A stretch of 64,000 bases of DNA, from positions 320,001 through 384,000 of the forward strand of contig CBDBOV010000005.1 in NCBI GenBank assembly GCA_965208575.1. The letters run 5' to 3'. Both the position numbers and the translations under genes were made by a program. This document shows, piece after piece, positions 3,651-37,870 of this stretch. Source of the stretch: Spirochaetia bacterium (lineage in GTDB: Bacteria; Spirochaetota; Spirochaetia; SZUA-6; Bin103). The first letter of the stretch is position 1. Every line of letters begins with the position of its first letter. Below the pieces are notes generated by a model. The model did no database searches. It was not told the origin of the DNA and was given only the letters and a program-made list of their open reading frames with translations.

Positions 3651-3820
3651 GGGGGTGCAAAATGATACTCAAAGAGCCGCACGCGCGCGGCGTGAGCCGG
3701 GGTGAACCCGGTGAGTCACACGCCGCGCGCTTCACAAATCTGACTCTGTCTGGCCGGCCGTCTGCGTTGCGGGCGCGAGAGTAGCCAGGGAGCGGCAATC
3801 CGCTCCGCAATACTCTCAAG
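3651..3820 (+). promoter_or_regulatory. Conserved structured leader motif A (copy 1)
   Basis: Closely similar to 16883-17045(-) and 37702-37870; stems GCGCGCGGCGTG/CACGCCGCGCGC and GAGAGTA/TACTCTC. Confidence 0.7.
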
Positions 3821-3842
3821 AACACATTTTATGGAGAAAACC

Positions 3843-5669
3843 ATGAAATATATCGTAAGCATGAGAATGACCTTCGCGGTTGCGCTGGTCATGATGCTGA
3901 CCGCGACCGGCCTCTGGGCCACCGGCGCAGACGAGGAGGAGCCGGCAGTCGCTGCCGACAGAGAGACGGTGTTCGACCCCGCCACCGGCATAACGTGGAC
4001 CGCGCCAGAGTATGGCGGAACACTCACGTGGGGCGCTAACGGTCTGCCCAAGAATACTGACCTGTGGGCGCCTGGTGGCTGGACGCCGCACCTCATCAGT
4101 GGCGTCAATGAGAAGCTAGTGCACGGCAACTGGGCAATATCCAGGGACAAGGTGGCTGAACTAGCTTGGATCTATTCGGGCCCAGAGATGTACCGAGGGG
4201 CTCTGGCTGAAAGCTGGGAAATGCCCGATGACACAACGTGGATCTGGAACATCCGCCAGGGCGTTCACTACCACGATAAGGCGCCGATGAACGGTCGGGA
4301 GTTCGATGCTTATGACGTCGAATGGAACTATCACCGCTTTTGGGGTCTGGGTGATTTCACCGAAGACGGACCTACCCCCAACCTGGCGGTAAGAGCTTTC
4401 GGTATAGAGCTCGAATCGGCAACGGCCACCGACCAATGGACGGTTGAGCTTAAGCTGACGAAGCCTTACCCCAATACGGTGTACTTGATGTCCCACAACC
4501 TGACTTGGATGTTGGCCCGCGAGGTAGTCGAGCAATACGGCGACTATGGGGATTGGAGGAACGTGGTCGGCACGGGGCCCTATCAACTGACTGACCTTGT
4601 CGAGGACACCTCGGCAACCTGGGAAAAGAATCCCAACTACTGGGGCTACGACGAAAAATTCCCGGACAACCGCCTACCCTATATTGACACGTTGAAAAAC
4701 CTCGTTATACCAGACAAGGCAGCACGTCTGGCGGCAATGCGCACCGGTAAGATTGATATGCTTAGTATGACCGGCGACGCTCGGATATTCAGCGTCGACA
4801 ATATAGAGAGCCTGCAGAAGACCAACCCTGAAATTGAGGTGTGGCCCGTTTATGCCTTTTCCAGTGGCTCTCATATTTTTAACCAGTCTCTGCCACTCAT
4901 GCAGGACGTCAATGTGCGCAAGGCACTGCAGATGGCAGTGGACCGCGAGACGATTTCCGCTACCTTCCTTAAGGGTTGGGGAGATCCAGCACCTAATGGG
5001 ATAGTAAGTCAGAGGCAGGTAGGGTGGAACTGGCCGTATGAAGAATGGCCCGAAGAGGTCAAGGCAGGCTATCGGCATGACCCGGCAGAGGCAGAAGCGT
5101 TGCTTGATGAGGCCGGATATCCACGAGGCGCCGACGGCGTTCGATTCACGCTCAAGTTTGGCCATGCCGGTTGGTCGGATCCGGCCTATCCAGAAGTCGT
5201 CATAGCGTACTTTGACGCCATTGGCGTGAAGAGCGAGCTGGTTGTGGTTCCTGGCGCTGAGATGGGACATTACATGTCTACGGAAGCGCACGATCTCCAC
5301 CTGGTTAATTGGGTGGGATATCCGATTTTCCCCCCCTCGCCCGATGTATATAGGCTCACAAGTAACCCCTGGAGTCGTACACTCGGTCGTCACTGGAGCA
5401 AAGCGAAGGACCCGGAAATGGACGCCCTGATTGCCGAAATGCAAGCTACTACCACCGCGGAGGAGTGGCAGAGCTTACATGTACGGGTCGATGAGAAAAC
5501 GGTAAGGGAGCACTGGGGCTTGGTGAAACCCATCTCCCCTCAGTTTAGCGTGACCCAGCCGTGGGTCGAGGGTTATTTCGGTGAAGCAGGTCTGGGATAC
5601 GCTGAACGTAATACCTTCAAGGCCCGCCTCTGGATTGATAGTGCGCTGAAGGCAGCAAGCGGTCGTTAG
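3843..5669 (+). CDS. ABC transporter substrate-binding protein, family 5 (SBP1)
   Basis: Signal peptide ending TGLWA; PEYGGTL, LAESWE, VGTGPY, NPNYW, VRKALQMAVD motifs. Confidence 0.95.
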   Translation: MKYIVSMRMTFAVALVMMLTATGLWATGADEEEPAVAADRETVFDPATGITWTAPEYGGTLTWGANGLPKNTDLWAPGGWTPHLISGVNEKLVHGNWAISRDKVAELAWIYSGPEMYRGALAESWEMPDDTTWIWNIRQGVHYHDKAPMNGREFDAYDVEWNYHRFWGLGDFTEDGPTPNLAVRAFGIELESATATDQWTVELKLTKPYPNTVYLMSHNLTWMLAREVVEQYGDYGDWRNVVGTGPYQLTDLVEDTSATWEKNPNYWGYDEKFPDNRLPYIDTLKNLVIPDKAARLAAMRTGKIDMLSMTGDARIFSVDNIESLQKTNPEIEVWPVYAFSSGSHIFNQSLPLMQDVNVRKALQMAVDRETISATFLKGWGDPAPNGIVSQRQVGWNWPYEEWPEEVKAGYRHDPAEAEALLDEAGYPRGADGVRFTLKFGHAGWSDPAYPEVVIAYFDAIGVKSELVVVPGAEMGHYMSTEAHDLHLVNWVGYPIFPPSPDVYRLTSNPWSRTLGRHWSKAKDPEMDALIAEMQATTTAEEWQSLHVRVDEKTVREHWGLVKPISPQFSVTQPWVEGYFGEAGLGYAERNTFKARLWIDSALKAASGR

Positions 5670-5705
5670 GGGTTTCATCTCCCTGTGGCTGACCTCGGGG
5701 AAAAA

Positions 5706-5739
5706 GGGAACTGGGGGGCTCAAGCCCCCCAGTTTTCCC
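5706..5739 (+). terminator. Intergenic stem-loop between SBP and permease
   Basis: CTGGGGGGC-TCAA-GCCCCCCAG followed by TTTT; same element at 11645-11677. Confidence 0.65.
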
Positions 5740-5752
5740 ATACTCGTGTGAC

Positions 5753-6754
5753 ATGAGAGCCTATATCATAAGGCGGTTATTGCTCATAATCCCCACCCTC
5801 TTCATTCTGAGCATCCTGATCTTTCTCTCGGTCCGCTTCATTCCCGGCGATGTAATAGACGCAATGGCGGGAACTATAGATTCGACGCAAATGGACCTGG
5901 ACCGTGAAGCTGTTGAGCGTATTCTGGGATTGGACGTGCCTGTCTACGTACAGTACGGACGCTGGATCGGAGTGTTGCCTAGCCCTGACTGGATTACCAA
6001 GGAGTCCCACTTCAACGGTATCCTCCAGGGCACCCTTGGCCAATCACTGATTGGCGGCCAACGCCCGATAGAGGAGCAGATACTAGCTAAATTGCCAGTA
6101 ACCATTGAGCTTGGCGTCCTGGCCATCGTAATCGGGCTGGTGATAGCCCTGCCCGTCGGCATCTACTCGGCGATTCGCCAGGATACGGCCACCGACTACG
6201 TGGGGCGCACCGCGGCCGTCATCGGCCTGGCAACGCCTAACTTCTGGCTGGCAATTATGGTAACGCTCTACCCGGCAATCTGGTGGGGCTGGTCGCCATC
6301 GGTAGAGTATATCCGTCTTGTCGAAGACCCGCTGCGGAACCTGGGGATGTTACTCATTCCCGCCGTGATTCTGGGCACGGCCATGTCGGCAGCCACCATG
6401 CGGCTGACACGCACCATGATGCTGGAGGTGCTCAGGCAGGACTATATCAGGACAGCCTGGTCCAAGGGTCTCAAGGAGAGGGTAGTTATTGTGAGACACG
6501 CCGTCAAGAATGCCCTTATCCCGGTGGTTACGTTGATAGGCCTGCAGTTGCCTCTGCTGGTAGGTGGCTCCGTTATCATGGAGAACATATTTAACCTGCC
6601 GGGAATAGGTCGTATGTTTCTGGATTCACTCGAAGCCAGAGACTACCCAGTGATCCAAGGAGTAAACCTTTTTTTCGCCACCGTAGTCATGCTTAGCATT
6701 CTACTCATCGACGTGATTTATCCTTATTTGGACCCCAGGGTCCGCTACAGCTAA
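5753..6754 (+). CDS. ABC peptide-type permease (DppB/OppB-like)
   Basis: MRAYIIRRLL...; EAA loop QDYIRTAWSKGL; ENIFNLPG.GR; DPRVRY. Confidence 0.95.
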   Translation: MRAYIIRRLLLIIPTLFILSILIFLSVRFIPGDVIDAMAGTIDSTQMDLDREAVERILGLDVPVYVQYGRWIGVLPSPDWITKESHFNGILQGTLGQSLIGGQRPIEEQILAKLPVTIELGVLAIVIGLVIALPVGIYSAIRQDTATDYVGRTAAVIGLATPNFWLAIMVTLYPAIWWGWSPSVEYIRLVEDPLRNLGMLLIPAVILGTAMSAATMRLTRTMMLEVLRQDYIRTAWSKGLKERVVIVRHAVKNALIPVVTLIGLQLPLLVGGSVIMENIFNLPGIGRMFLDSLEARDYPVIQGVNLFFATVVMLSILLIDVIYPYLDPRVRYS

Positions 6755-6763
6755 AGGAAGCAT

Positions 6764-7660
6764 ATGAGCGACGCCACAGGAATACCATCAGCAGAAATTG
6801 GGCCAAAGAGACGTTCCCGGCAGGCTGCGTTCGTTATCAGGCTGGTCAAGGAGAAGCCGCTCGGTACTGCCAGCGGGATTGTCATATTGATATGGATTTT
6901 GATCGCTATCTTTGCCGATGCTCTGACCCCTTATCCACCTTTCGAAATGCACTTGGCAGACCGGCTGCAGGGCGCATCCGTCCAGTATCTCCTGGGGACC
7001 GACCACATAGGGCGAGACTTCTTGAGCCGCCTGATCCTAGGGGCGCGTACTTCGATACTGATCGGTCTGGCAGCGACCGCTCTGAGTACTGTGATCGGTA
7101 CCCTGATAGGCGGCACTTCAGGATTCCTTGGTGGTAAGTTTGACATTATAGTGCAGAGGGTTGTCGATGCCTGGACGGTCTTCCCGGGACTGCTCCTGTT
7201 GCTCACCATAATGTCGATAGTGGGGCGCGGTATACCACAGATAATACTGGTCCTGGGGATATCAGGAGGCATTGGCGGCAGCAGACTGATCCGAAGCGCC
7301 GTTATCGCCATCAAGGGGAGTGACAACTTTCTGGCAGCAGAGGCGGTTGGCAACACAAAATGGCGTTCATTCATCCGCCATGTCCTGCCCAATGTTATGC
7401 CTGTCGTCATCATCATGTTCTCGATAACCGTAGGAGGCGTAATCCTGAGTATTGCTTCTCTGAGCTTCCTCGGATATGGTCTGCCCCCCACGACTCCTGA
7501 CTGGGGAGGTCTGCTCAGCCGGGAAGGGCGTCAATACATGGAGCAGGCGCCCTGGCTGGCGGTCTGGCCCGGTCTTTGCCTGACGATTGCCGTTTACTGT
7601 CTAAACATGCTCGGGGACGCCATGCGGGACCTCCTCGACCCCAGGCTCAGGGGCGGCTAG
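6764..7660 (+). CDS. ABC peptide-type permease (DppC/OppC-like)
   Basis: LGTDHIGRD, RHVLPN, SLSFLGYG, GDAMRDLLDPR. Confidence 0.95.
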   Translation: MSDATGIPSAEIGPKRRSRQAAFVIRLVKEKPLGTASGIVILIWILIAIFADALTPYPPFEMHLADRLQGASVQYLLGTDHIGRDFLSRLILGARTSILIGLAATALSTVIGTLIGGTSGFLGGKFDIIVQRVVDAWTVFPGLLLLLTIMSIVGRGIPQIILVLGISGGIGGSRLIRSAVIAIKGSDNFLAAEAVGNTKWRSFIRHVLPNVMPVVIIMFSITVGGVILSIASLSFLGYGLPPTTPDWGGLLSREGRQYMEQAPWLAVWPGLCLTIAVYCLNMLGDAMRDLLDPRLRGG

Positions 7661-7953
7661 TTCGCTGGCCACGTCTATATCCTGGTGAACAACGCGGGCA
7701 TAATCGCGCGCCTGGCTGGGAAAATCGGCCCGAGAGCAACGACAAAGATTGGGACATGATATAGAACGCGCAGGGTCCGTGCACCAAGGGCGCTCGCCCG
7801 CTGGACCAGACGAGCCCGGCTAGCCCCGCTCCCCCGACCGCGCCCGGCGGCCGCGCGCGAGGTGCTAAGCTGCGGTGGCGCTGCCGGCTTCGTCCTGGCG
7901 TTTCGCGGCTCGCCTGTGGTATCGTGGCGCAACGAGGATCCACACGCACCCAT

Positions 7954-8784
7954 ATGAGCAAGCACATGATAACCGTCGCGGTGACCGGCTCGGTGCCGAC
8001 GCGCGACCAGCATCCCGGCCTCCCCCACACCCCCGCGGAGATCGCCGACGCCACCTACGACTGCTACCGAGCCGGCGCCGCCATCGTCCATATCCATGTG
8101 CGCGATCCCGAGACCGGGGTCCCCACCTACCGCCTCGAGCTATTTCGCGAGTGCGTCGAGAGGATCCGCGACAAGTGCGACATCCTCATCAACCTGACGA
8201 CCAGCGGCAACAACATCCCCCGTAAGAACGTCATCGAGGAACGGCTGGAGCCGGTCGAGCTCGGCACCGAGCTGTGCTCCCTCGACATCGGGTCGTTCAA
8301 CCTCGGGTACCGCCCGGCGGTCTTTCAGAACCCATCCGACTGGAGTCTGGCCGCGGCGCAACGAATGCGGGAGCGAGGCGTAAAGCCGGAGATCGAGGTG
8401 TTCGACATGGGCCACGCCTGGCAGGCGCGTGCCATGATCGAGCAGGGGCTGTTCGACGATCCGCCCTATGTGCAGATCTGCATGGGAGTGAGGTGGGGCA
8501 TCGAGGGGACGCCGGAGAACCTGCTGCTGATGCGCAAGCAGCTGCCCGCCGACATCCCCTGGTCGGTGCTGGGTGTGGGGCGCGCGCAGCTGCCACTCAT
8601 CACCATGGCGGTGATCCTCGGCGGACACGTGCGCGTGGGTTTCGAAGACAACCTCTACCTGCGCAAGGGGGTGCTGCTCGAGAGCAACGCGCAGATGGTG
8701 GAGGCTGCCGCCAACATCATTCAGCAGCAGCAGCGTGAGGTGGCCACCACCACCGACGCTCGCCAGATCCTTGGCATCAACTGA
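7954..8784 (+). CDS. 3-keto-5-aminohexanoate cleavage enzyme family (BKACE/DUF849)
   Basis: ITVAVTG, AGAAIVHIHVRD, KPEIEVFD, GHVRVGFEDN. Confidence 0.93.
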   Translation: MSKHMITVAVTGSVPTRDQHPGLPHTPAEIADATYDCYRAGAAIVHIHVRDPETGVPTYRLELFRECVERIRDKCDILINLTTSGNNIPRKNVIEERLEPVELGTELCSLDIGSFNLGYRPAVFQNPSDWSLAAAQRMRERGVKPEIEVFDMGHAWQARAMIEQGLFDDPPYVQICMGVRWGIEGTPENLLLMRKQLPADIPWSVLGVGRAQLPLITMAVILGGHVRVGFEDNLYLRKGVLLESNAQMVEAAANIIQQQQREVATTTDARQILGIN

Positions 8785-9026
8785 GCGGGCGCCATCGAGG
8801 TTCAGACGAGGCTCTTCCTACACCACCTCTAACCCTGACGTTCAGGTCTTCACCCCGTGACCCCTGTGACCCCCGTGACCCGACACCGCGCGACGATGGC
8901 ACGTGCGGCCGCCTGTGCTTCGAGCGCGTCGAGGGACTCCAGAGTAGAAGGTCGCCACCGCCGCCAAGGTCGCCACCGAGGAGGAGGCGGTGCGCAACGG
9001 AGCTGGCCGGCCTTGACCGCGAGCGG

Positions 9027-9150
9027 GTGCGTGAGTGGCATAACGGCTATAGCTGGCTGGGCACGGAGAAGGTGTACAACGCGTACGACGTGCTGCTGCT
9101 GTTTCGCCGCCGTGAATTCGCCGCCCACTGGTTCGAGACCGCCACGCCGG
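9027..9150 (+). pseudogene. Internal fragment of AAA-ATPase-like/PD-(D/E)XK gene
   Basis: REWHNGYSW...VYNAYDVL...HWFETATP matches the WYNGY/VYNPxDVL/YWFETGTP blocks of this family. Confidence 0.7.
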
Positions 9151-9170
9151 AGCGGTGGTGGGTCGCGCTC

Positions 9171-9200
9171 TTGACATGGATTGGGGACGGCCTCTACACT
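9171..9200 (+). promoter_or_regulatory. sigma70-type promoter of SBP2 leader
   Basis: TTGACA-N18-TACACT. Confidence 0.65.
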
Positions 9201-9256
9201 CGTCGCGAATGGGTACCGACACCATCCGCCCCAACCGCTGCCTAGCGCTGAGCCAG

Positions 9257-9296
9257 CCGACTACCCGACTACCCGACTACCCGACTACCCGACTAC
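9257..9296 (+). repeat. Tandem 8-mer repeat (CCGACTAC)x5 in SBP2 leader
   Basis: Five perfect units seen directly, inside an ORF starting at ATG 9209. Confidence 0.95.
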
Positions 9297-9657
9297 CGCG
9301 CGCCGCTAGCCGCTCAGCCGACCGAGCCGCGGGCGACCGCCCGGTGCCGGTGCTGAGCGCGGCAGCATCGATCCGTGTGGCGCACAGCCGCCACGCATCC
9401 GTGCGTCCTAGCGGCCGACCCCGTCGGCCGCCACTTCCACCAGTCCAGACCAGCATGCGTAGCGCCGCTTGCCGGCCGCCACGCGTGGCGTGCGCAGGCA
9501 TGCCCTTTCGGCGCGGCGCACGGGCGTCAAGGAGGTACGGCCTAGAGGATTAACGTAGAGACCGGGCGGCCGCGGACGCGAAGGGTGTCGCCCTCGCTCG
9601 ACTGAGGGAGCAGGCGAGGGGCCGGCAGTGGCAACAGCGCTCTCGAAGGAGATCTCA

Positions 9658-11451: not shown

Positions 11452-11713
11452 GGGCTTTGAGCAGCCGACAAGACCGCATCCCAGCCGGGGAAGGACCGAC
11501 CTGCAGGGACGTGTCGTGTAGGGCATAAAGCTGAAGTCGTCAGGAGGGATTTGGTCTGGCGCCTGAGCCAGTGAATCTCTGCCTATGGCTTGCGCGCGCC
11601 GCGATTCTACCCGGCCACCCGTTGTGGCTGAGCTTAGGGAAAAAGGGAGCTGGGGGGCCAAGCCCCCCAGTTTTCCCATACTCCTTGAATAATGAGAGGG
11701 GCGCTTTCTCGCT

Positions 11714-11787
11714 GTCATCCCGGACTTGATCCGGGATTCAGGAGTTCTTGGGTAGGTCCCTAGATTCAGGGTGAAGCCCGGAATGAC
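11714..11787. repeat. REP-like palindromic element (GTCAT...ATGAC type)
   Basis: GTCATCCCGGACTTGATCCGGGA...AAGCCCGGAATGAC, inverted ends with internal hairpin. Confidence 0.7.
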
Positions 11788-11900
11788 AAATCAAACTGAT
11801 CACTACTCTTCGCATTAGAACCAGAAATGAAGCTGCCTTGTGTCTACATTCTTGCGAGTCCCGAAAAGTCGGGGCTCGCAATGACAAGGAGGAGTGTGCC

Positions 11901-12911: not shown

Positions 12912-12919
12912 AGGGGCAT

Positions 12920-12971
12920 ATGAGCGACGCCACAGGAATACCATCAGCACAAACTGCGCCAAAGAGACGTT
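12920..12971 (+). pseudogene. 5' stub of DppC-like permease
   Basis: ATGAGCGACGCCACAGGAATACCATCAGCA matches the start of the 6764 gene; similarity is lost after ~17 codons. Confidence 0.85.
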
Positions 12972-13125
12972 GTCCAGCCAGTGCCCGATGATGCCCATCG
13001 CGGTCTCGCCCTCCTGATTGAACACGCCCAGGTCGCGGTAGATCTCGACCAGTCGCCGCACCTCCGCCCGGTGAAGCCGGCCGGCGCGGCGTCCGGCGTG
13101 GGAGCGTCAGGTTGCCTCGACCGAC

Positions 13126-15064: not shown

Positions 15065-16861
15065 CTAACGACCCATTTCTTCCTTTAGCTGACTGTCAAT
15101 CCAGAGGCGGGAGAACATGGTATAAGTCTCGCCCTTCGCCAGCTCTACCTCACCGTTATAGCCTATGACCCACGGCTGGTAGGCAACAAAAAATGGAAGT
15201 TTCGGACTCCATATCAGCCAGTGATTCGCCATCGCATACATGTCCGCCTCGCTCACCAGCCTCTGCTGCTCCTCAGTGGTCGTAGCTGCCAGTGCAGCGT
15301 CAACGAGAGCGTCCAACTTAGGCCACTGGGTGCCGCCGCGGTTCCACTGGTTGTCCGAGTGATACCAGCTTACCGTCATCTCAGGATCATAGATGGTGCC
15401 GGAAATGGCACTGACCATGCCTTCATAGGTACGCGAGAATAGCCTTTCGTGATACTCGCCGTAGTCGAGTACATCGATCTCGACATCGACGCCGATCTCG
15501 GCCCAGTAGGCAACAGCTATTTCTACGTAGCCCAAATCTGCCCAAGGTCCGTAGTTCAAGACGGTCTTGAATCTGGTGCCGTCGGCGCCGCGCGGATACC
15601 CAGCGTCATCGAGGAGCTTCTCGGCACCTTCCGAGTCGTACCGATAGCCTTCCTTGACCTCTTCCGGCCACTGGTCAAATGGGATGAAATACCCCTTCAC
15701 CCCTACCAGTCCCTGAGGTGTCGGATCTGCCTGACCCTTATGGTACGTGTTGGCAACGGTCTCGAGGTCCAGCGCCATCTGCATCGCCTTGCGCACTCGG
15801 ATGTCGTCAAAGGGCGGCACGCGCACGTTAGCGGCAAAGGCGTCATTCGACCGAAACGGAACCGGGTGCTGCACGATCTCCGGGTTGGTTTGCCGTAGGC
15901 TATCCGACTGGTCGATGCTATTCATTTCACCACCCCCAAGGGGTCTCGCATCGATCTTGCCAGTGATTAATGCCGCCTGAATTGTTGCGTGATCTGCAAA
16001 ATTCAGTACCCTTATCTCGTCCACGTAGGGCAAACGGTTCTCCGGGTACTTTTCGTCATAGCCCCAGTAGTCAGGATTCTTGGTCAAAGTGAACGAGCTG
16101 TCCTCGTCAAGTGCAGTCAGCTCGAACGGTCCGGTGCCAACCAGGTTCTTCCAGTCCTTGACGTCACCGTGTTCTCTGATTACCTCAGGCGGCATGATGA
16201 ACGTGAAGTACTCTTCGAGGATAAGCCGCAGCGCAGGGAGGTGTATCTCGTTCAGCTTCATCACCACCGTCGAATCGTCGGTGGCTGTTATCGACTCGAA
16301 TGGGATGGAGGTGAGTGGGCCAGCGGCATTGAAGGCGCTCGGTCCGGCCTCGGTGAACTCGCCCATGCCCAATATGCGGTGAAAGTTGAATTCGATGTCG
16401 TGTGCAGTGAGCTCGCGACCGTTCATCGGCGCCTTATCATGCCAGCGAACGCCCTTGCGGATGTGGAAGGTATGGGTGAGGCCGTCCGGGGAAATATCCC
16501 ATCTTTCAGCCAGCCTCCCGGTAAAGACAGAAAGAGGGATCGGGCCAGATCTAAAATCCCATTCGTCTCTGTCTATTCCCCAGTCGCCGATACCTAGCTT
16601 CTCTGCGACGAGCTGAACATGGAGTCCGCCCCAGCCAAAGTAGGGGTCAGTATCCGAACCGATTCCAAGTCGTTTACCGATGGTAAGTGTCCCGCCGTAC
16701 TCCGGCGCTACTACGACCTTGCCGGTGGTGGGGTCGGTCACATATTTCTTGTCGGCAGCGGCTGCCGGCTCCTCTTCTGCGCCGGCGGCCCACAGGCCGG
16801 TTGTGGTCAGAACCAGGACCAACACAACCGCGAAGGTCCTTGTGATTCTTGCGATATTCAT
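15065..16861 (-). CDS. ABC substrate-binding protein family 5 (SBP3)
   Basis: TGLWAAGAEEE, PEYGGTL, VGTGPF, NPDYWGYDEKYP. Confidence 0.95.
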   Translation of the reverse strand: MNIARITRTFAVVLVLVLTTTGLWAAGAEEEPAAAADKKYVTDPTTGKVVVAPEYGGTLTIGKRLGIGSDTDPYFGWGGLHVQLVAEKLGIGDWGIDRDEWDFRSGPIPLSVFTGRLAERWDISPDGLTHTFHIRKGVRWHDKAPMNGRELTAHDIEFNFHRILGMGEFTEAGPSAFNAAGPLTSIPFESITATDDSTVVMKLNEIHLPALRLILEEYFTFIMPPEVIREHGDVKDWKNLVGTGPFELTALDEDSSFTLTKNPDYWGYDEKYPENRLPYVDEIRVLNFADHATIQAALITGKIDARPLGGGEMNSIDQSDSLRQTNPEIVQHPVPFRSNDAFAANVRVPPFDDIRVRKAMQMALDLETVANTYHKGQADPTPQGLVGVKGYFIPFDQWPEEVKEGYRYDSEGAEKLLDDAGYPRGADGTRFKTVLNYGPWADLGYVEIAVAYWAEIGVDVEIDVLDYGEYHERLFSRTYEGMVSAISGTIYDPEMTVSWYHSDNQWNRGGTQWPKLDALVDAALAATTTEEQQRLVSEADMYAMANHWLIWSPKLPFFVAYQPWVIGYNGEVELAKGETYTMFSRLWIDSQLKEEMGR

Positions 16862-16882
16862 ACGTAACTCCGTACGTGGATT

Positions 16883-17045
16883 ATTTGAGAGTATTGCGTA
16901 GCGGGCTTGCCGCTTCCTGGCTACTCTCGCGCCCGCAACGCGGGCGGCCAGACAGAGTCGAATTCACCAAAGCGCGCGGCGTGTGACTCAACGGGGGTCA
17001 CGCCGCGCGCGCGTGCGGCTCTTTGAGTATCATTTTGCACCTCCA
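16883..17045 (-). promoter_or_regulatory. Conserved structured leader motif A (copy 2)
   Basis: Reverse complement matches 3651-3820; shorter loop in the long hairpin. Confidence 0.7.
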
Positions 17046-17306
17046 TTTTCTGTAGACCGCTCGGCGGACGTCGGGACCTGCGTCACAACGCCACGCGGGG
17101 TCGTGGTCGGCGAAGCACCGCGTCTGAATAGCCGGCAACGCCGGCGGAGGGTCTTGCCGGGAGTCAGTCGCGGGCGGGGTTCCGGCACGGCTGCGGTCGC
17201 CGCGAAGGGCGCGAAGGGCGCGGGCGGTCCGCATGCCGGTTCGGCGGTGGTGAAGGCGACGGCGTGCGCGGGGTCGCGTACGGGGCGATCAGCCGGAGCG
17301 GTTAGT

Positions 17307-19284
17307 CCCAAGTTTGGGGGCCCGTTCTTGTAAGTACTTTATATCACAAGAATTAGCGTGTTTGTGGGTGTAAATCGTGTCCATGTAAATCGTCCTTGTT
17401 TTCAGCGGTCTTTTTCTCTCATCTAATTGACAGTCAATCATTAAATGATTTACTCTTCCTTCCCGAAGGGTGCCCATGTACATCGACACCGTCCCCAACC
17501 GCAACTCTCCCCCAGCCGTCCTCCTCCGCGAATCCTTCCGCCAGCACGGCAAGGTCCGAAAACGCACCATCGCCAACCTCTCCAAGTGGCCCGATCACCT
17601 CGTCGATGGTTTGCGCGTCCTCCTCAACGGCGGTATCGCTCTCCGCTCTCCCAACGAACTGCTCTCCATCTTGCGCAGCTATCCCCACGGCCACGTCGCC
17701 GCCGTCCTCGGTTCCCTCCGCAAGCTCTCCCTCCATTCCCTCGTCGCTCGTCCCGCCTCCCGGGAGCGCGACCTGGTCGTCGCCATGATCGTCGCTCGCG
17801 TCGTCGACGCACGCTCCAAGCTCGCCACCGCTCGCGGCCTGAACCCCGAAAGCGCCGTCTCCTCCCTCGGCCACCTGCTGCAGTTGGGAGCCGTCGACGA
17901 GAATGAGCTGTACAACGCCATGGACTGGCTACTCGCTCGCCAGCACGGCATCGAAAAGCGCTTGGCCAAGCGCCATCTGCAGGACAACACGCTCATGTTG
18001 TACGACCTGACTTCCAGTTACTTCGAGGGACACACCTGCCCGTTGGCGCGCCGCGGTCACAGCCGCGACGGCAAGCGCGGCACCTTGCAGATCGTGTTCG
18101 GCCTGCTGTGTACCGCCGCCGGCTGCCCCATCGCCGTCGAGGTCTTCGAAGGCTCCACCGGCGATCCCAAGACGGTCGCCGCTCAGGTCGACAAGATTCG
18201 CAACCGTTTCGGCTTGCAGCGCGTCGTGCTGGTCGGCGACCGCGGCATGCTCACCGGCGCGCGCATCCGCGAGGACCTGCAGGGGATCGACGGTCTGCGC
18301 TGGATCACGACCCTGCGGGCGCCCACCATCCGCAAGCTGATCAAGGCCGGTGAAGTGGCGCAGACCATGTTCGACGAGCGTGACCTGGCGGAGATCAGCT
18401 CACCCGAGTTCCCGGGCGAGCGGCTGATCGTGTGCCGCAACCCGATCCTGGCCGAGCAACGGCAGCGCAAGAGGCAGGCGTTGCTGGCCTCCACGGAGGA
18501 GGAACTGACGCCGATCGTGACGGCCACGCAGCGCGCCAAGGAGCCGCTGCGCGGCGCCGGCGCGATCGGCCTGCGGGTGGGCAAGGTGATCAACCACTAC
18601 AAGGTGGGCAAGCATTTCACCACCACCATCACCGACGACTCGTTCTCGTTCGCGCGTGATCTGGACAAGATCGCGGCCGAGGAAGAACTGGACGGGCTCT
18701 ACATCGTGCGCTCCAACGTGGAGCCGGAGCTGTTCGACGCCGAGCAGACGGTGACGGCGTACAAGGACCTGGCCAAGGTGGAACGTGCGTTCCGCAGCAT
18801 GAAGACGGTGGATCTGAAGGTGCGACCGATCTATCACCGCAGCGCAGACCGGGTGCGGGCGCACGTGTTCCTGTGCATGCTGGCCTACTACGTGGAGTGG
18901 CACATGCGCAGGAAGCTGGCGCCGGTGCTGTTCGACGACCACGATCCCGCAGCTGGCGAGCAGTTGCGCGAGTCGGTGGTGCAACCGGCGCAACGGTCAC
19001 CGGCGGCACACCGGAAGGCGGCGAGCAAGCGCACCGACGACGGTCTGCCGGTGCACAGCTTTCGCGGCCTGATGAGCGAGTTGGGGACGCTGACGGCCAA
19101 CCGCGTGCGGATGGTGGACAGCGGCGCCACGTTCACCATGCACAGCGAACCGACCGCGCTGCAGCAGCGCTGTTTCGATCTCCTGGAGGTCAGCGCCCAA
19201 GTGTAGCCAGTAACGGACATCGGCTGTTGAGCGCAATTCTCAGATCAATAACGAATTAACAAAATCCCCGCTCTGGAACTTCGG
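17307..19284 (+). mobile_element. IS1634-family insertion sequence
   Basis: Ends CCCAAGTT...AACTTCGG (7/8 inverted match); 6-bp direct repeat GTTAGT at 17301-17306 and 19285-19290. Confidence 0.9.
17476..19206 (+). CDS. IS1634-family DDE transposase
   Basis: MYIDTVPNRNSPPAVLLRES, YDLTSSYFEG, VGDRGM, YKDLAKVERAFRSMK, RPIYH. Confidence 0.95.
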   Translation: MYIDTVPNRNSPPAVLLRESFRQHGKVRKRTIANLSKWPDHLVDGLRVLLNGGIALRSPNELLSILRSYPHGHVAAVLGSLRKLSLHSLVARPASRERDLVVAMIVARVVDARSKLATARGLNPESAVSSLGHLLQLGAVDENELYNAMDWLLARQHGIEKRLAKRHLQDNTLMLYDLTSSYFEGHTCPLARRGHSRDGKRGTLQIVFGLLCTAAGCPIAVEVFEGSTGDPKTVAAQVDKIRNRFGLQRVVLVGDRGMLTGARIREDLQGIDGLRWITTLRAPTIRKLIKAGEVAQTMFDERDLAEISSPEFPGERLIVCRNPILAEQRQRKRQALLASTEEELTPIVTATQRAKEPLRGAGAIGLRVGKVINHYKVGKHFTTTITDDSFSFARDLDKIAAEEELDGLYIVRSNVEPELFDAEQTVTAYKDLAKVERAFRSMKTVDLKVRPIYHRSADRVRAHVFLCMLAYYVEWHMRRKLAPVLFDDHDPAAGEQLRESVVQPAQRSPAAHRKAASKRTDDGLPVHSFRGLMSELGTLTANRVRMVDSGATFTMHSEPTALQQRCFDLLEVSAQV

Positions 19285-29795: not shown

Positions 29796-29821
29796 CGCGC
29801 CGGCGGGAGGGAGCAAGCCGG

Positions 29822-31168: not shown

Positions 31169-31179
31169 CTCTCCTCACC

Positions 31180-33345: not shown

Positions 33346-33682
33346 CCGCACCCGGCAACGTGCACCGCAACGCGAAAGAAGGCGCCCCGAGCATGATCGA
33401 GGTCCGCGGCATGGAGCATTCGCCTGCGTGCCGCGAACCGGGGCGTGGCCAAGGCCCTCACGTCGGTCCTCCCGGCCACTACCCAGCGGCTCGACGGCCC
33501 CTGAACGGACCCGCGTGTGCCTTCAGCCATGCAGCCTCGCCATGGCGCCTGCCGGATCGCTACCGGCGCCTGTCAATCCAACGCAATGCCCGCTGGAATC
33601 CGCAACCGCCCGTGCTGCTCTTGGAACAAATTGCAAGTAGTGGTTTCAATATGTACGCCACGGCAGGGGAGGCGCAGCGAGC

Positions 33683-34129
33683 ATGATCGAGATCCGCGGC
33701 ACGGAGCAATTCGCCTGTGACCGCGATCGGGTGCGCGCCGCTCTGGGCGACCTGGAACAGGTGGCGGCGGCGCTGCCCGGACTGTCCCGCATCGAACGCA
33801 GCGGCGGCGATTCCCTGGTGTGCCGGGTGCGGCCCGGTCTGACATTTCTCAGCGGCTCCCTGCGCACCACGATCACGCGCCGGGAGGAGGCGCACAAGGA
33901 GGCGCTGGGCTACCGGATCGACAGCAGGGGCATTGGCGCCGGCGCGGTCGCGAATGCGCACATCCGCTGCCTGCCTGACGGCGAGCGCCGCAGCCGGGTG
34001 GAATGGCAGGTGCAGGTGGAGGAGCTGAGCGGCCTGCTGAAGCCGGTCGGCGCAAGCCTGGTCGAGGCGGCGATGGGGAGGGTGGCCGCGGCTACCTGGG
34101 AGGGGCTGCACGCCCGGCTCGGCGCCTGA
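33683..34129 (+). CDS. SRPBCC/CoxG-like protein
   Basis: 148 aa; V..AL.D...VAAALPG pattern; GGAGG RBS. Confidence 0.75.
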   Translation: MIEIRGTEQFACDRDRVRAALGDLEQVAAALPGLSRIERSGGDSLVCRVRPGLTFLSGSLRTTITRREEAHKEALGYRIDSRGIGAGAVANAHIRCLPDGERRSRVEWQVQVEELSGLLKPVGASLVEAAMGRVAAATWEGLHARLGA

Positions 34130-34182
34130 CGCTGGCGCTTGCGAGCCACCACAGCCGAGGAACAGCAATCAGGAGTGAACCA

Positions 34183-34587
34183 ATGCCATCGAAAGAAGAA
34201 ATCCGATTGGCCAGGGAGCGGGCGATCCCCGTGCTCGACGCATGGATGGTCGCGTTCAACGCGCTCGACCTGGAGGCCTGGAAGGCCACCATGCAATATC
34301 CGCACTACCGTCTTGCGTCCGGTGCGATGCACACATGGGAAGATGCGGACATGGACGGCGCCTACCTGGCGCGCGTGCGGGCAGGACTGGGTGCAATCAA
34401 GTGGCATCACAGCGTTTGGACGCGGCGTGAGATCGTGCACTGCTCCGACCGGAAGATCCACCTCGACACCCAGTTCACCAGGTATCGGGAAGATGGATCG
34501 GTCATCGCGGTGCACGACTCGCTCTATGTCCTCACCTGGGAAAACGACAAGTGGGGCGTCAAGCTGCGCTCCAGCTTCGCCAGATAG
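34183..34587 (+). CDS. NTF2-like small protein
   Basis: AFNALD...WHHSVW...KIHLDTQFTRYREDGS...WGVKLRSS; AGGAG RBS. Confidence 0.75.
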   Translation: MPSKEEIRLARERAIPVLDAWMVAFNALDLEAWKATMQYPHYRLASGAMHTWEDADMDGAYLARVRAGLGAIKWHHSVWTRREIVHCSDRKIHLDTQFTRYREDGSVIAVHDSLYVLTWENDKWGVKLRSSFAR

Positions 34588-34715
34588 ATTCGCCGGGCGA
34601 GGCAACCGCGCGGCAACGACGTCGTCGAGCGCGGATCGCTCCCGGATCGCCGCGTCCGGTTGACCGGCGGCCGCGACGGCGGTCAGAATGGCACTCAGGG
34701 GGTGAGGCTGCTACC

Positions 34716-35723
34716 ATGCGCTACCGTCTTGAGGACCTAGGCAAGGGCGTGACCGTGCCTTGCATCGACCTGGACCTGACCGGCTCTCCGGATGCGCCGG
34801 CGCGGCGCGAATTGGCGGCCGACATCTACGAGGTGGTGGACCGGGAGGGCGGGCTGCTGATCCGCGAGACCGGCATCGGCAATACCGGCGGGTACGGTGC
34901 GTTCCTGGCCTCCATCGACTTCCACCACCACTCCTACGTCGGCGGCACCACTCCCAGGAGCGAGCGCGGCAACGGCGTGTATACCGCCACCGAGCTGCCG
35001 CCGGCGGTCACGCTGCACAGCCACCAGGAGATGTCCTACCTCGACTCGGTGCCCGACTACGTCTCCTTCTACTGCGAGCGCCCGCCGGACCGCGGGCAGA
35101 AGACCAACCTGTTCGTCGACATGCGCGCCTTTGACGCGCACCTGCCGGAGGAGTTCAAGGCGCGCTACCGCGGCCGCCGGGCACGCCTGCAGCGCACGCT
35201 GGCCAGCAACGATCCCGGTCCAACGGTACCCGGCAGGAAGTACTGGCAGGAATCACTCGGCACCACCGACCGCGGCGAGGCGCAGGCAATCGCGGACGAA
35301 CACGGCTGGCACCTCACCTGGAAGGCTGACGGGTCGCTGGTAATCCGGCAGGAGCCGGCCCGGTTCTTTCGTCCGCATCCCATTCACGGCGAGTTGTGGT
35401 GCACCCAGGCGATGCTCATCAATCCGGTCACCCGCTTGCGCGACGCGCAGCGGGATGGCCGCCACGAGGACGCGGCCGGGGTCGAACGGCAGCGCGCCGC
35501 CGACCCGGACAGCCTCGACCAGATGTTCCTGGAGGACGGCAGCCGCATCCCGGACGCCGACGTGCACCTGTGGTTCGACCTGATGATGGAACACGAGACC
35601 CGATTCGCGCTGCAGCGCGGCGACGTGCTGGTCCTGGACAACATGCTCATCGGCCACGGGCGCAGCTCCTTCGAGGGACCGCGCCGGATGTTCGCCGCGC
35701 TCGGCAGCCGCCGGGCCGCCTGA
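34716..35723 (+). CDS. TauD/TfdA-family Fe(II)/2-oxoglutarate dioxygenase
   Basis: HQEMSY, FYCERPP, GDVLVLDN...HGR..F.G.R. Confidence 0.9.
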   Translation: MRYRLEDLGKGVTVPCIDLDLTGSPDAPARRELAADIYEVVDREGGLLIRETGIGNTGGYGAFLASIDFHHHSYVGGTTPRSERGNGVYTATELPPAVTLHSHQEMSYLDSVPDYVSFYCERPPDRGQKTNLFVDMRAFDAHLPEEFKARYRGRRARLQRTLASNDPGPTVPGRKYWQESLGTTDRGEAQAIADEHGWHLTWKADGSLVIRQEPARFFRPHPIHGELWCTQAMLINPVTRLRDAQRDGRHEDAAGVERQRAADPDSLDQMFLEDGSRIPDADVHLWFDLMMEHETRFALQRGDVLVLDNMLIGHGRSSFEGPRRMFAALGSRRAA

Positions 35724-35753
35724 CCCCTGGGCGCTACGCTCGCGGCGACACGG

Positions 35754-37166
35754 TCAAGTTACGCCGGCTGGAGCGTTGTGCGGCTGGGCGAGCAGGTCTT
35801 CGAGGAAGCACATGGTCTTCAGGACGCCAACGTCGTCGCGCTGGTTGCCGATGATCTGCAGGCCGACCGGCAGGCCGAGTCCGGTCTTGCCGACGCACAC
35901 GGTACCCGCCGGGTTGCGCGTCATGTTGATGCCGTACGTGAAAGCAACCCAGCCGTCGGTCTGTGTGCCGTTGATCGTGCCGGAGGCGGAACCGGCCTTG
36001 GGAGTCTGGCCGCACGTGGTCGGCGTGAGGATGAAGTCTCCCGCCTGGAACGCGTCGACCAGCCCGGCGTTCAGATAGTGGCAGGCATCGACCGCGCGGG
36101 CGTAGTCGACTCCGCTGACGTTGTCCATGCCGTGCTCGATCTGCGGCCTGAGCCCCTCGTCGATCTGCTCCCATTGCGGTGTGCCGCGCAGGTCACCCTG
36201 AGCCCGCGCCCGCGATGCGGACCAGAACTGGTACCATGGTCCGCGCGGGTCCTCTTCCCAGATCGTCTCCCGCAAGACTACGTCGACACCTGCACCGCGG
36301 AGGGCCGCGATGGCCGCTTCGCAATGTTGCATGATCTCCGAGTCGACCGTGGCGAATCCCATCGTCGGCGACCAGACGACGCGCCGCGGCCTGTTGTGCC
36401 GGTTCAATGCGGCACGCCAGGACTCGGCCGGCCGGGGCATCGAAAAGATGTCGGTCGGTTCATGCTCCAGGACGGCATCCAGCGCATAGGCGACGTCGCG
36501 AACGCGAAGCGCCATCGGACCCTTCAAGCTCAGGATGCCCGATCCGGGTGGGGAGGTGCCACCGGCCGGCACCCGCCCCTGGCTTGCCTTGATGCCGCTG
36601 AATCCGCACACCGACGCAGGAATGCGAATGGAACCTCCGCCATCCGATCCGGTGCCGAGCGGAATCATGCCCGAAGCGAGCGCCGCCGCCGTGCCACCGG
36701 ATGACCCTCCCGGGCTGTAATCCAGGTTCCAGGGATTGCGCGTCGCCCCGAATGGCCGGTTGTCGGTCACTCCCTTGTAACCGAACTCGGGCGTGTTCGT
36801 CTTGCCCAGGATCACGCAACCAGCCTTGCGCAGCAACGCGACCAGCACCGAGTCGTGTTGTGCGGGTGCATCGCCGGCGTGCAGTTCGGAGCCGTAGGTC
36901 GTGACGAATCCACGCGCATCCTCGAGATCCTTGACGCCTATCGGAATGCCGGCCAGCGGCCCTACCGGATCGCCTTGCCTCAGGCGCGCATCGATGGCGT
37001 CGGCCTGCGCCAGGGCATCCTCGAAGTTCACCGCGCAAAACGCGTTCAGCCGCGGGTTCAACGACTCGATGTTGTCGATCGCCGCTTGCGTCAGGTCACG
37101 TGCTGACACCCGCCGCGCAAACACGGCCCCGACCAGCTCCTCAACCGTCGTTTCACGAAAGTCCAT
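35754..37166 (-). CDS. Amidase signature family protein
   Basis: GKTNTPEFG, PGGSSGG, GSDGGGSIRIP. Confidence 0.95.
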   Translation of the reverse strand: MDFRETTVEELVGAVFARRVSARDLTQAAIDNIESLNPRLNAFCAVNFEDALAQADAIDARLRQGDPVGPLAGIPIGVKDLEDARGFVTTYGSELHAGDAPAQHDSVLVALLRKAGCVILGKTNTPEFGYKGVTDNRPFGATRNPWNLDYSPGGSSGGTAAALASGMIPLGTGSDGGGSIRIPASVCGFSGIKASQGRVPAGGTSPPGSGILSLKGPMALRVRDVAYALDAVLEHEPTDIFSMPRPAESWRAALNRHNRPRRVVWSPTMGFATVDSEIMQHCEAAIAALRGAGVDVVLRETIWEEDPRGPWYQFWSASRARAQGDLRGTPQWEQIDEGLRPQIEHGMDNVSGVDYARAVDACHYLNAGLVDAFQAGDFILTPTTCGQTPKAGSASGTINGTQTDGWVAFTYGINMTRNPAGTVCVGKTGLGLPVGLQIIGNQRDDVGVLKTMCFLEDLLAQPHNAPAGVT

Positions 37167-37465
37167 GCCGAAGCAGCCTCCGGCTTCCGCGCGGACCTGT
37201 CAACACACGCGGCGGTTACTTCGAGACGGAGAATGCGCACGGCAATACCACCGTGGTGGTGCTCGCGGTTTCGTTCGCCTACATGAGGCAGCGGGCGAGG
37301 TCAGCCGCCGTGACCGTGCGATCGGCGCAGCGCGGCAAGGAAATCGGCCTCGTCCGCGCAGCCGAGCGCCGCCGCCAGCAGCGCTTGGCGTAGCCCATCT
37401 CGCGCGGACATGCAAACCGGACGTTCCAGATCCACAGAGCCGGGAACGATCGCATAAGCGTGAGA

Positions 37466-37494
37466 TTGACAGTGTGCGGCGGGCATTGCAAAGT
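37466..37494 (+). promoter_or_regulatory. Probable sigma70 promoter of SBP5 leader
   Basis: TTGACA-N17-CAAAGT (weaker -10), same position relative to the uORF as the other copies. Confidence 0.5.
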
Positions 37495-37518
37495 AATGTG
37501 ATCAGGGATTCTTGCCGC

Positions 37519-37611
37519 ATGCCGACCACCCTCGACCATAGCATTCAGCGCAGGCACCGGTTGACGCAGATGTCCCCCCCCCCGGCAACTCTTTATATGA
37601 CAAACCATTAA
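37519..37611 (+). CDS. Putative leader peptide (uORF) of SBP5
   Basis: MPTTLDHSIQRRHRLTQMSPPPATLYMTNH*; C10 tract. Confidence 0.5.
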   Translation: MPTTLDHSIQRRHRLTQMSPPPATLYMTNH

Positions 37612-37701
37612 CCGCTTCCGCTGATCGCCGCGTACGCGACCCCGAGCACGCCGTCGCCTTCACCACCGCCGTACCTGTCGGTGGCGCCGGCTACGGAATA
37701 C

Positions 37702-37870
37702 GGCGGTGCAAGGTGGTACTCAAAGAACCGCACGCGCGCGCGGCGTGAGCCCGGGTGAACCCGGTGAGTCACACGCCGCGCGCTTGCAGAGACTTGACTC
37801 AGACTGGCGGCCCGCGTTGCGGGTGCGAGAGTAGCCAGGGTAGCGGTAAGTCGCTCCGCAATACTCCAAG
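37702..37870 (+). promoter_or_regulatory. Conserved structured leader motif A (copy 3)
   Basis: Matches 3651-3820. Confidence 0.7.

Follow-up and report, generated by a model that had tools for sequence, protein, structure and literature searches.

Leader A and the binding-protein genes it precedes

We analysed a 64,000-nucleotide (nt) window of contig CBDBOV010000005.1 (positions 320,001 to 384,000, forward strand) from the Spirochaetia bacterium assembly GCA_965208575.1; the window denotes this whole stretch, and coordinates below refer to it. It contains three copies of a ~190-nt 5' leader, leader A, each ending at the ATG of a gene for a solute-binding protein (SBP) of the SBP_bac_5 family. 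Leader A is a real, new and lineage-restricted structured leader RNA with an upstream open reading frame (uORF), a variant of known cis-regulatory leaders. The three copies, with their matches to our covariance model of the leader (R1) and the genes they serve, are as follows.

3651..3842, + strand: leader A copy 1, from the first base of a Shine-Dalgarno (SD)-like box to the last base before the SBP ATG; R1 match 3650-3845, 206.9 bits
3843..5669, + strand: SBP_bac_5 gene of copy 1 (PF00496, E 4.2e-61)
16862..17044, - strand: leader A copy 2, the canonical form; R1 match 16859-17046
15065..16861, - strand: SBP_bac_5 gene of copy 2 (PF00496, E 4.8e-66)
37702..37892, + strand: leader A copy 3; R1 match 37700-37895
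37893..39689, + strand: SBP_bac_5 gene of copy 3 (PF00496, E 3.1e-65)

The served genes encode ~600 amino acids each, and two BPD_transp_1 permease genes come next. The initial annotation of this DNA had placed three copies of a riboswitch-like motif at these positions, and all three are present. Its remark that the motif is conserved although the SBPs diverge also holds, with pairwise identities of 0.75-0.76 between the three leaders versus 0.42-0.47 (amino acid) between the mature SBP domains. It had recognised no Rfam family, and the searches agree: Rfam 15 gave no match at the gathering threshold over the whole window, and at E values up to 10 the interval 3560-3900 returned only a chance match to a snoRNA (E 1.8).

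The host genome (6.5 Mb, 67% G+C, 95% complete) holds 62 copies of leader A, found by iterated nhmmer with E values from 4e-53 to 2.5e-12. Fifty-four are full length, three lack the 3' half and five lack part or all of the 5' half. Behind 61 of the 62, an SBP open reading frame (ORF) recognised by BLASTP match to the window SBPs begins on the same strand 5-139 nt downstream (5-29 nt in 59); 57 of these ORFs have at least 560 codons' worth of protein (>=560 amino acids) and four are truncated (228-419 amino acids). The sole copy with no SBP ORF, d55, is a truncated leader. When the 54 full-length copies are aligned with their flanks, conservation starts abruptly at the AGGAGGTG (GGAGG) box, with none 5' of it, and runs on past the leader into the signal peptide, up to a PEYGGT motif. 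We rejected a dispersed repeat of the MITE (miniature inverted-repeat transposable element) or REP (repetitive extragenic palindrome) type, given that 61 of 62 copies lie on the same strand directly 5' of an SBP gene and that similarity extends into the signal-peptide codons.

The genome carries ~130 full-length paralogues of this SBP subfamily, 58 of which bear leader A by the start-estimate method; the remainder fall into other upstream-sequence groups of 14, 11, 9, 7, 5 and 4 members, plus singletons. R1 matches occur in seven of ten other genomes of the genus (43, 33, 1, at least 62, 35, 6 and 2; at least 182 in all), and none was found in 30 genomes outside it (13 from the sister genus, 17 from other families of the order). 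Leader-bearing genomes gave at least 125 and at least 150 SBP matches, versus four in each of two leader-less genomes of the genus and one in a sister-genus genome; the leader therefore goes with expansion of the gene family. An exact 18-mer scan of genome contigs for a wider distribution was set aside, returning mostly chance matches in unrelated high-GC genomes, along with repeated matches in two 'Spirochaetia bacterium' metagenome-assembled genome records. An exact 19-mer scan of metagenome contigs gave six loci, which we take as chance matches because none of the six matches R1.

Two pseudoknots and an upstream open reading frame

The two domains of leader A share one topology: the 5' strand of a first stem, an inserted hairpin, the 5' strand of a second stem abutting the 3' strand of the first, a linker, and the 3' strand of the second stem. 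Both are classical H-type pseudoknots, comprising P1, P1a and PK1 in domain 1 and P2, P2a, PK2 and P3 in domain 2. P1 is a 12-bp GC stem (GCGCGCGGCGUG/CACGCCGCGCGC) and its hairpin P1a is variable or absent; GAGUCA, directly next to the P1 3' strand, forms PK1 with UGACUC ~10 nt downstream. Domain 2 contains P2 (CUGGC/GCCAG), P2a (CGCCCGC-GUU-GCGGGCG), PK2 (GAGAGUA/UACUCUC) and P3 ((GG)AGCGG-CAAN-CCGCU(CC)). An A-rich linker follows PK2 and leads to the SD and AUG of the SBP gene itself, the fold ending 2-15 nt before the SD and not pairing with it. The GUU loop, a GG and the GCAA linker are conserved unpaired nucleotides within type A. In the window copies the parts lie as follows.

3651..3657, + strand: copy 1, SD-like box GGGGGTG, 4 nt 5' of the uORF ATG
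3662..3784, + strand: copy 1, uORF of 41 codons, frame shifted; its TAG end spans the PK2 5' strand and the P2 3' strand
3683..3730, + strand: copy 1, P1 hairpin, strands 3683-3694 (5') and 3719-3730 (3'); its loop holds the P1a hairpin and the PK1 5' strand GAGTCA (3713-3718)
3741..3746, + strand: copy 1, PK1 3' strand TGACTC
3750..3817, + strand: copy 1, domain 2; P2 CTGGC 3750-3754 / GCCAG 3784-3788, P2a hairpin 3759-3775, PK2 GAGAGTA 3777-3783 / TACTCTC 3811-3817, P3 hairpin 3791-3804
3827..3848, + strand: copy 1, small ribosome-binding-site (RBS) hairpin with the SBP SD in or near the loop and the ATG in the 3' strand; an identical tail folds at -7.7 kcal/mol with the AUG fully paired
16998..17033, - strand: copy 2, uORF MILKEPHARAA*, SD GGAGGTG at 17038-17044; the TGA stop (16998-17000) lies at the inner end of the P1 5' strand
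16972..17010, - strand: copy 2, P1 hairpin without P1a, strands 16999-17010 (5') and 16972-16983 (3'); PK1 5' strand GAGTCA 16984-16989
16955..16960, - strand: copy 2, PK1 3' strand CGACTC
16887..16951, - strand: copy 2, domain 2; P2 16947-16951 / 16917-16921, P2a 16930-16946, PK2 16922-16928 / 16887-16893, P3 16900-16914
16859..16876, - strand: copy 2, RBS hairpin CGTACG-GAGTTA-CGTATG, with the SD as loop and the ATG in the stem (L026, -6.9 kcal/mol)
37713..37748, + strand: copy 3, uORF with a GTG start, then VLKEPHARAA; TGA 37746-37748 within P1; degenerate SD GGCGGTG at 37702-37708
37736..37783, + strand: copy 3, P1 hairpin with P1a; PK1 5' strand 37766-37771
37795..37800, + strand: copy 3, PK1 3' strand TGACTC
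37804..37868, + strand: copy 3, domain 2; P2 37804-37808 / 37834-37838, P2a ~37809-37825, PK2 37827-37833 / 37862-37868 (shortened, because the 3' strand reads TACTCCA), P3 37842-37855
37878..37895, + strand: copy 3, RBS hairpin CATACG-GAGCAG-CGTATG (L023, -7.0 kcal/mol)

To assess the fold, the 53 distinct full-length copies of the genome (54 minus one identical duplicate) were aligned with MAFFT, fitted to no structure; the helices were written from the sequences and then counted. Standard pairs form in 90.0% of 2490 alignment cells, and 21 of 49 pairs are changed on both sides, versus 9.2 ± 2.1 in shuffled alignments, none of 500 shuffles reaching 21. Sliding the 3' partners by 1-3 columns leaves 32-52% pairing and at most 16 doubly changed pairs. 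A second alignment comprises 85 copies from eight genomes, duplicate loci left out, and was fitted to the nested helices of R1, a model of which PK1 and PK2 are not part. Here 92.7% of cells pair, and 29 of 49 pairs (82 cells) are doubly changed, again reached in none of 500 shuffles; the covariation score is 0.114, and slid partners give no more than 0.041. Each of the eight helix segments shows compensatory double changes. Among the 85 copies, P1 is 96.9% paired with five of 12 pairs changed on both sides, PK1 is 89-93% paired and two of its pairs show compensatory changes (four of UA to GC, two of AU to GC), and in PK2, which is 93% paired, four of seven pairs are changed on both sides. Mutual information computed over all column pairs mainly reports sub-family haplotypes of the RBS region; the exceptions are two pairs, one in P1a (model positions 54/59) and one internal to the L3 linker (83/89).

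Most of these helices had been read correctly in the initial annotation. Its 12-bp stem GCGCGCGGCGTG/CACGCCGCGCGC, with a variable loop that always keeps TGAGTCA, is present (copy 2 lacks the inner hairpin). Covariation backs the pairing of that loop with a downstream GACTC, which reads (T/C)GACTC, as well as the CTGGC/GCCAG pairing and the GAGAGTA/TACTC(TC) helix enclosing an AGCGG...CGCT hairpin. The ~15 nt it gave from the end of the motif to the SD is the 15-nt gap between TACTCTC and the SD in copy 1. Its suggestion that an upstream TACTC competes for GAGTA was not supported: that pairing shows no covariation and, tested together with a pairing of the 5' GGAG with CTCC beside P3, which we likewise rejected, has one of nine pairs doubly changed, a value equalled by all 500 shuffles. 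The upstream TACTC is instead codons 2-3 of the uORF and under codon-like constraint. What had escaped it were the copy number, the uORF, the pseudoknot topology of both long-range pairings and the conservation through the signal-peptide codons.

The leader opens with a strong SD box (AAGGAGGTG / AAGGAGGUG), the second form of which we take to be complementary to the usual 3' end of 16S rRNA (E. coli 16S as reference), and then an 11-codon uORF, MILKEPHARAA, whose start codon stands 5-6 nt after the conserved opening block. We counted uORF features in the 82 distinct copies that hold the region, out of 86 distinct full-length rows. Start codons are ATG in 54, GTG in eight, TTG in four, CTG in three and other in 13. 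GGAGG is found in 46 of the 82, and GGAG or GAGG in eight more, 9-17 nt before the start codon being examined. Among the 66 copies with a canonical start, 55 have 11 codons and end at the same UGA within P1, MILKEPHARAA being the commonest peptide (33); the P1 5' strand holds the last four uORF codons, and the U and G of the stop are its last two bases. Other lengths are six codons (three copies), nine (one), 14 (five) and 40 (two). The 40-residue uORF of window copy 1 arises because one CG unit of the (CG)n run (3675-3684, + strand) is missing and the frame is shifted; the same is seen in a near-twin on contig C6, and the 40-residue frame ends at the TAG in GAGAGTAG.

Departures from consensus within uORF codons 2-6 number 51 synonymous to 43 non-synonymous, versus 13:79 and 13:74 in the other frames, in copies that are related rather than independent; only 10 of the 45 possible single changes in these codons are synonymous. 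The variation has a period of three (CTC/CTG, AAA/AAG, GAA/GAG, CCG/CCA/CCT/CCC), and we read it as codon-like because RNA pairing does not predict such a period. Distances from the uORF start to the SBP start fall 26/24/27 into the three classes modulo 3 (77 copies), and this even split indicates that the stretch between uORF and gene is non-coding. A frameshift signal or an N-terminal extension of the SBP was accordingly rejected: the uORF frame and the SBP start stand in no fixed relation, and stops occur in the +1 frame of 73 and the +2 frame of 54 of the 77 copies. Evenly spread frames, all usually carrying stops, exclude a frameshifted or fused product, and inspection for a canonical X XXY YYZ slippery heptamer found none. 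The uORF stop lies ~145 nt from the main start.

Sister leaders, module exchange and transcription

Other SBP_bac_5 genes of the window are preceded by leaders of two further types, C and D.

9587-9648, + strand: C-type leader core, before the SBP_bac_5 gene at ~9640
53786-53871, - strand: D-type leader core, before a window SBP_bac_5 gene
58857-58942, - strand: D-type leader core, likewise
62779-62864, - strand: D-type leader core, likewise

These leaders match the 3' pseudoknot core of leader A in order: P2 (CCNUCGC/GCGANGG), with or without P2a, (UC)GAGAGUR abutting the P2 3' strand, a 16-20-nt linker and YACUCUC(GA). The P2 sequence differs, and helices P2 and PK2 alone are common to the A, C and D types. 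Over 13 copies of the C/D core, 87% of cells pair and seven of 23 pairs are doubly changed (P2 C-G to G-C four times; PK2 U-A to C-G three times and G-C to A-U three times), versus at most four in slid controls. A model of this core, R2, finds 25 copies in the genome. It also finds 48, 13, 47, 17, 8 and 4 in six of the seven other leader-A genomes, the seventh, G004, having one A-type match; elsewhere it gave one weak match (E 0.005). D-type leaders start with AAGGAGGTGCC, then a start-stop or an ORF of two to four codons that ends 14-35 nt before P2. In the window this is a 3-codon uORF after AAGGAGGTGCC, reduced to a start-stop in one copy where ATT replaces the first ATG. The longest-ORF calls at 51942-53936 and 57004-59007 reach ~55-60 codons into the leader. 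Upstream group B14 of the same genome has a different sequence with a 10-bp repeat and no PK2-type pseudoknot.

Leader A and the start of the signal peptide appear, from sequence comparison, to be an exchangeable 5' cassette that is copied between paralogues. Leader identity correlates poorly with mature-protein identity (Spearman 0.16) and better with N-terminal identity (0.42), the downstream SBPs being 13-82% identical to one another. Copies d10 and d13 share a leader identity of 0.99 with a mature-protein identity of 0.44, and d44 and d45 share 1.00 and 0.74. Near-identical tracts span -250/-20 to ~+350 relative to the leader start. In genome G005, the orthologue of the SBP gene at 3843 (93% amino-acid identity over residues 11-607) agrees with the window gene in its distal 5' untranslated region (UTR) and in its coding sequence from roughly codon 18 onward. 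The segment between these is C-type, leader and N-terminus alike, and that of the window is A-type, so the two types are interchangeable on one gene. Leaders may also lose a domain: copies d46, d47 and d56 end after P2a, without pseudoknot 2, and d57, d58 and d61 lack domain 1 (all on contigs C3/C6). Since these six copies hold one domain yet precede intact genes, the two domains are separable modules.

Four metatranscriptome libraries, from four studies (labelled 'sponge metagenome' or with coded organisms), include contigs that contain the leader, and single contigs of these RNA libraries run from unique upstream sequence (3489, 3520, 3520 and 3457) into or up to the leader. RNA depth sums paralogues and relatives and was hence not used; a low-depth bin at 3435-3481, by a poly-C tract, is no sign of a transcript start. 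Homopolymeric C/G runs of at least eight bases (lengths 8-55) number 55 in the genome, and 26 of them lie 296-613 nt 5' of SBP starts in sense orientation. Tracts of this kind in the window are as follows.

3442-3449, + strand: poly-C tract
37574-37583, + strand: poly-C tract
54090-54098, - strand: poly-C tract
63070-63082, - strand: poly-C tract

Many of these tracts occur in the context ACCGGT..TTGACGC..ACCGGT-C(n)-GGCAACTCTTTATAC, which resembles a promoter region with a slippage-prone tract and is, on sequence grounds, a candidate for phase variation. Poly-C tracts similar in kind occur in the Bordetella fim promoters. The shared promoter-like context suggests 5' UTRs of 300-600 nt, of which the leader would be the 3' part. 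A promoter within the leader was considered on account of a -10-like GATACT and rejected, there being no conserved -35 and the RNA contigs entering from upstream. No terminator was found in the leader.

The RBS hairpin was tried as a general feature and rejected: of 81 distinct tails, 34 (~40%) have a fully paired AUG, and the mean z-score is -1.1. It is sub-family-specific, with compensatory variants (CATACG/CGTATG, CATAGG/CCTATG, ATGG/CCAT). We likewise rejected an anti-SD switch that would release UACUCUC or the strands of P1 for pairing with the SBP SD, constrained folding (nested structures only) leaving SD and AUG accessibility unchanged. Neither the CsrA gene (PF02599) nor the RNase J gene (TIGR00649) was found in the 95%-complete genome, and a CsrA site and an RNase J target were set aside on that ground.

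Several further observations concern the surroundings of the leaders. Upstream of copy 1, a direct repeat GATGAAGCG..CAGTCAGCGCAGT..GGTTGSCGGT stands at 3238-3290 and 3374-3430 (+ strand), with similar sequence before other SBP genes; the interval 3294-3434 has very high summed depth in RNA-library contigs, and 3371-3398 holds a sigma-70-like match, TTGACG-16-CATGAT. The hairpin CCGGC-GTT-GCCGG has the same loop as P2a (GUU) and 23 occurrences in the genome, including 3601-3613 (+ strand) and 17132-17144 (- strand); 18 of the 23 lie within 600 nt 5' of a same-strand SBP start (eight with leader A, ten with other leaders). Upstream of copy 1 there is an ORF with a domain of the HNH endonuclease type, and directly upstream of copy 2 a DDE transposase gene; three enzyme genes stand beside the transporter operons.

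1399-3054, - strand: HNH endonuclease-domain ORF
17470-19206, + strand: DDE transposase (PF01609)
7924-8784, + strand: beta-keto acid cleavage enzyme (BKACE) gene
35754-37166, - strand: amidase gene
43712-45778, - strand: acyl-CoA dehydrogenase gene

Proposed post-transcriptional control and alternative explanations

The sequences themselves show the fold, the signature of the uORF, the association with SBP genes and the modular behaviour. With moderate confidence, we propose that leader A is a uORF-coupled, modular, cis-acting cassette for post-transcriptional control of the expanded SBP_bac_5 genes; its mechanism, including translation of the uORF in vivo and the sign and trigger of control, is what we infer. 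The strong upstream SD would load a ribosome, which would translate or park on the uORF. On terminating, this ribosome would have to melt P1 and open pseudoknot 1, and ribosome occupancy together with the folded pseudoknots could set mRNA survival and initiation at the SBP start. One common post-transcriptional setting would thereby be laid over genes with separate upstream promoter regions. The idea of the initial annotation, a cis-regulatory switch, stands insofar as a structured RNA is bound to gene 5' ends in one orientation with covariation in all proposed helices, and falls in its competing fold. It had named an Rfam or MITE match, absence of covariation, and occurrence independent of genes or orientation as outcomes that would speak against the idea; we found none of them.

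In a more specific form, which we consider rather improbable, the leader would represent a new class of ribosome-gated riboregulator. Its mini-ORF and pseudoknot would together sense either the capacity for translation or secretion or a pseudoknot-bound ligand, and would set the output of more than 100 secreted binding-protein mRNAs at once. Because the leader and the signal-peptide codons travel as one module, there might be a functional coupling between the RNA and the emerging signal peptide.

The nearest concepts are a survey of upstream RBSs in Sinorhizobium meliloti (PMC13285730) and the M. tuberculosis metE/ppe2 B12 riboswitch with a uORF (PMC11260477); these reports describe translational coupling, ribosomal occlusion, termination-reinitiation and uORF-dependent changes in expression. 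As in the systems described there, a short ORF with its own SD lies in the leader of the main gene, together with structured RNA. Unlike them, leader A has its uORF ahead of the structure, with the stop buried in a pseudoknot stem, and is repeated ~60-150 times per genome without a known aptamer. Coupling by occlusion or overlap, as described there, is too short-range for leader A, given the distance between the uORF stop and the main start.

A number of observations weigh against our proposal. Conservation alone proves little, because gene conversion homogenises the module; the evidence that counts is the compensatory changes and the codon pattern, not sequence conservation. Sixteen of the 82 copies have no canonical uORF start (three of them CTG), 11 of the 66 with one have another uORF length, window copy 1 among them, and the 43 non-synonymous uORF differences are still numerous, in counts that come from related copies. 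MILKEPHARAA contains no regulatory codon run save the Ala and Arg codons forced by the (CG)n stem. C-type leaders have an SD box (three of four examined) but no start codon at the usual spacing, and the box rather than translation may therefore be what matters. Neither domain is indispensable, because the six one-domain copies precede intact SBP genes of 596-613 amino acids. In partition-function folding, limited to nested structures, accessibility of the SD..AUG region is 0.44 versus 0.44 when the uORF and 13 nt are masked (46 copies); masking the PK2 5' strand gives 0.50 versus 0.48 for A-type (54 copies) and 0.43 versus 0.44 for C/D-type leaders (13). The RNA evidence consists of contigs, which carry no transcript starts, strand or level and could include DNA carry-over.

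Instead of responding to a ribosome on the uORF, the leader could be the docking site of a global regulator acting in trans (a protein, or perhaps a small RNA) that recognises either the conserved coaxial helix of PK2 and P2 or the loops G(A)UUG and CAA, and that represses or activates all SBP mRNAs together. We regard this as unlikely. Leaders of the A, C and D types all retain GAGAGUR/YACUCUC in PK2 despite their differences in P2 sequence, which suggests sequence-specific recognition beyond a structural requirement, and the fold is common to more than 80 mRNAs per genome and stops short of the SD, unpaired with it. Pseudoknot operators of this general kind are known, among them E. coli rpsO with S15, the alpha operon with the S4 double pseudoknot, and T4 gene 32, whose protein nucleates at a 5' pseudoknot upstream of its own RBS. 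Leader A has their topology, S1a-L1-S2a-S1b-L3-S2b with S2a abutting S1b, in a 5' leader before an RBS, and like the S4 site has two pseudoknots in one leader. In those operators, however, the SD and start codon are part of the pseudoknot or adjoin it, and the protein that the gene encodes acts as the regulator, whereas the SD of leader A lies 2-15 nt outside the fold and the products are periplasmic binding proteins with no known binder. No candidate factor was identified, and CsrA was not found in the 95%-complete genome; ~90-150 target sites per genome would demand a very abundant factor, and such a regulator leaves the uORF signature unexplained.

The same parts could also serve as a constitutive 5' stabiliser or anti-polarity element, a reading to which we assign a similarly low probability. 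The SD, with or without the mini-ORF, would hold a ribosome, and the pseudoknots would bar RNases or Rho from the 300-600-nt 5' UTR. The STAB-SD of cryIIIA is such a 5' stabiliser in Bacillus. Ribosome-dependent 5' stabilisation is also reported for hbs mRNA (PMC5737220). Leader A resembles these Bacillus stabilisers in having a strong SD-like box far 5' of the start codon within a long structured 5' UTR, where a bound ribosome could protect the RNA. An SD box kept even with no start codon in the C type, start-stop mini-ORFs in the D type, the interchangeability of A and C types on one gene, and the failure of modelling to detect an alternative fold all fit this explanation. The Bacillus elements, as described, act against RNase J1, however, and RNase J, which a STAB-SD blocks, was not found in this genome. 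The explanation also presupposes a box near the RNA 5' end, and RNA contigs do not give such ends. Most A-type copies, unlike those elements, have a start codon and a conserved peptide, and a parking site alone needs no amino-acid-level constraint on MILKEP.

A small-molecule riboswitch, in which either pseudoknot domain, or both, would bind one shared metabolite or second messenger and tune every SBP gene, is disfavoured, and we think it quite unlikely. It would account for a ~150-nt conserved fold with covariation, two pseudoknots and a conserved unpaired GUU loop, GCAA linker and GG, matching no known family and located in the 5' UTRs of transporter genes. Known pseudoknot riboswitches (preQ1-II/III, SAM-II/V, fluoride, guanidine-III and NAD+-II) are all in Rfam. 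They resemble leader A in being compact H-type pseudoknots within the 5' UTRs of genes for transport or biosynthesis; in them the SD is normally part of the pseudoknot, whereas that of leader A lies outside, with no Rfam match up to E 10 and no known ligand. No expression platform was found, there being neither a terminator in the leader nor an SD pairing backed by covariation or nested-structure modelling. The C and D types lack P2a and P3 or have other forms of them, so a common pocket of unpaired nucleotides does not seem to be kept. The downstream SBPs, at 13-82% identity to one another, presumably bind different solutes, either domain is lost in some copies with an intact gene, and A- and C-type leaders replace one another on one gene.

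Finally, it is very improbable that the leader has no function at the RNA level and is a DNA repeat (recombination substrate, promoter or operator) kept alike by gene conversion between paralogues: the clear conversion tracts, the weak correlation of leader with mature-protein identity and the swap of the whole module between orthologues would fit, but compensatory changes in all eight helix segments exceed shuffled and slid controls, synonymous-biased variation of period three occurs in exactly one frame, orientation and spacing are the same in 61 of 62 copies, and the leader is present in RNA libraries.

None of the nearest known concepts has the part order, copy number or cassette behaviour of leader A, and full-text literature searching found no account of this leader. 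To our knowledge, 62 A-type and 25 C/D-type copies per genome exceed the copy number of known cis-regulatory RNAs. Leader A would be a previously undescribed structured RNA family, tied to the growth of a single transporter-protein family beyond 100 paralogues in a spirochaete lineage that is uncultured and apparently associated with sponges. It would travel as a modular 5' cassette of uORF, pseudoknots and signal peptide, copied between paralogues and even swapped between leader types at an orthologous locus. The leader also corrects SBP start-codon calls, because longest-ORF calls run into leaders, and its several hundred copies would form a natural mutant series for the cooperation of uORF and pseudoknots.

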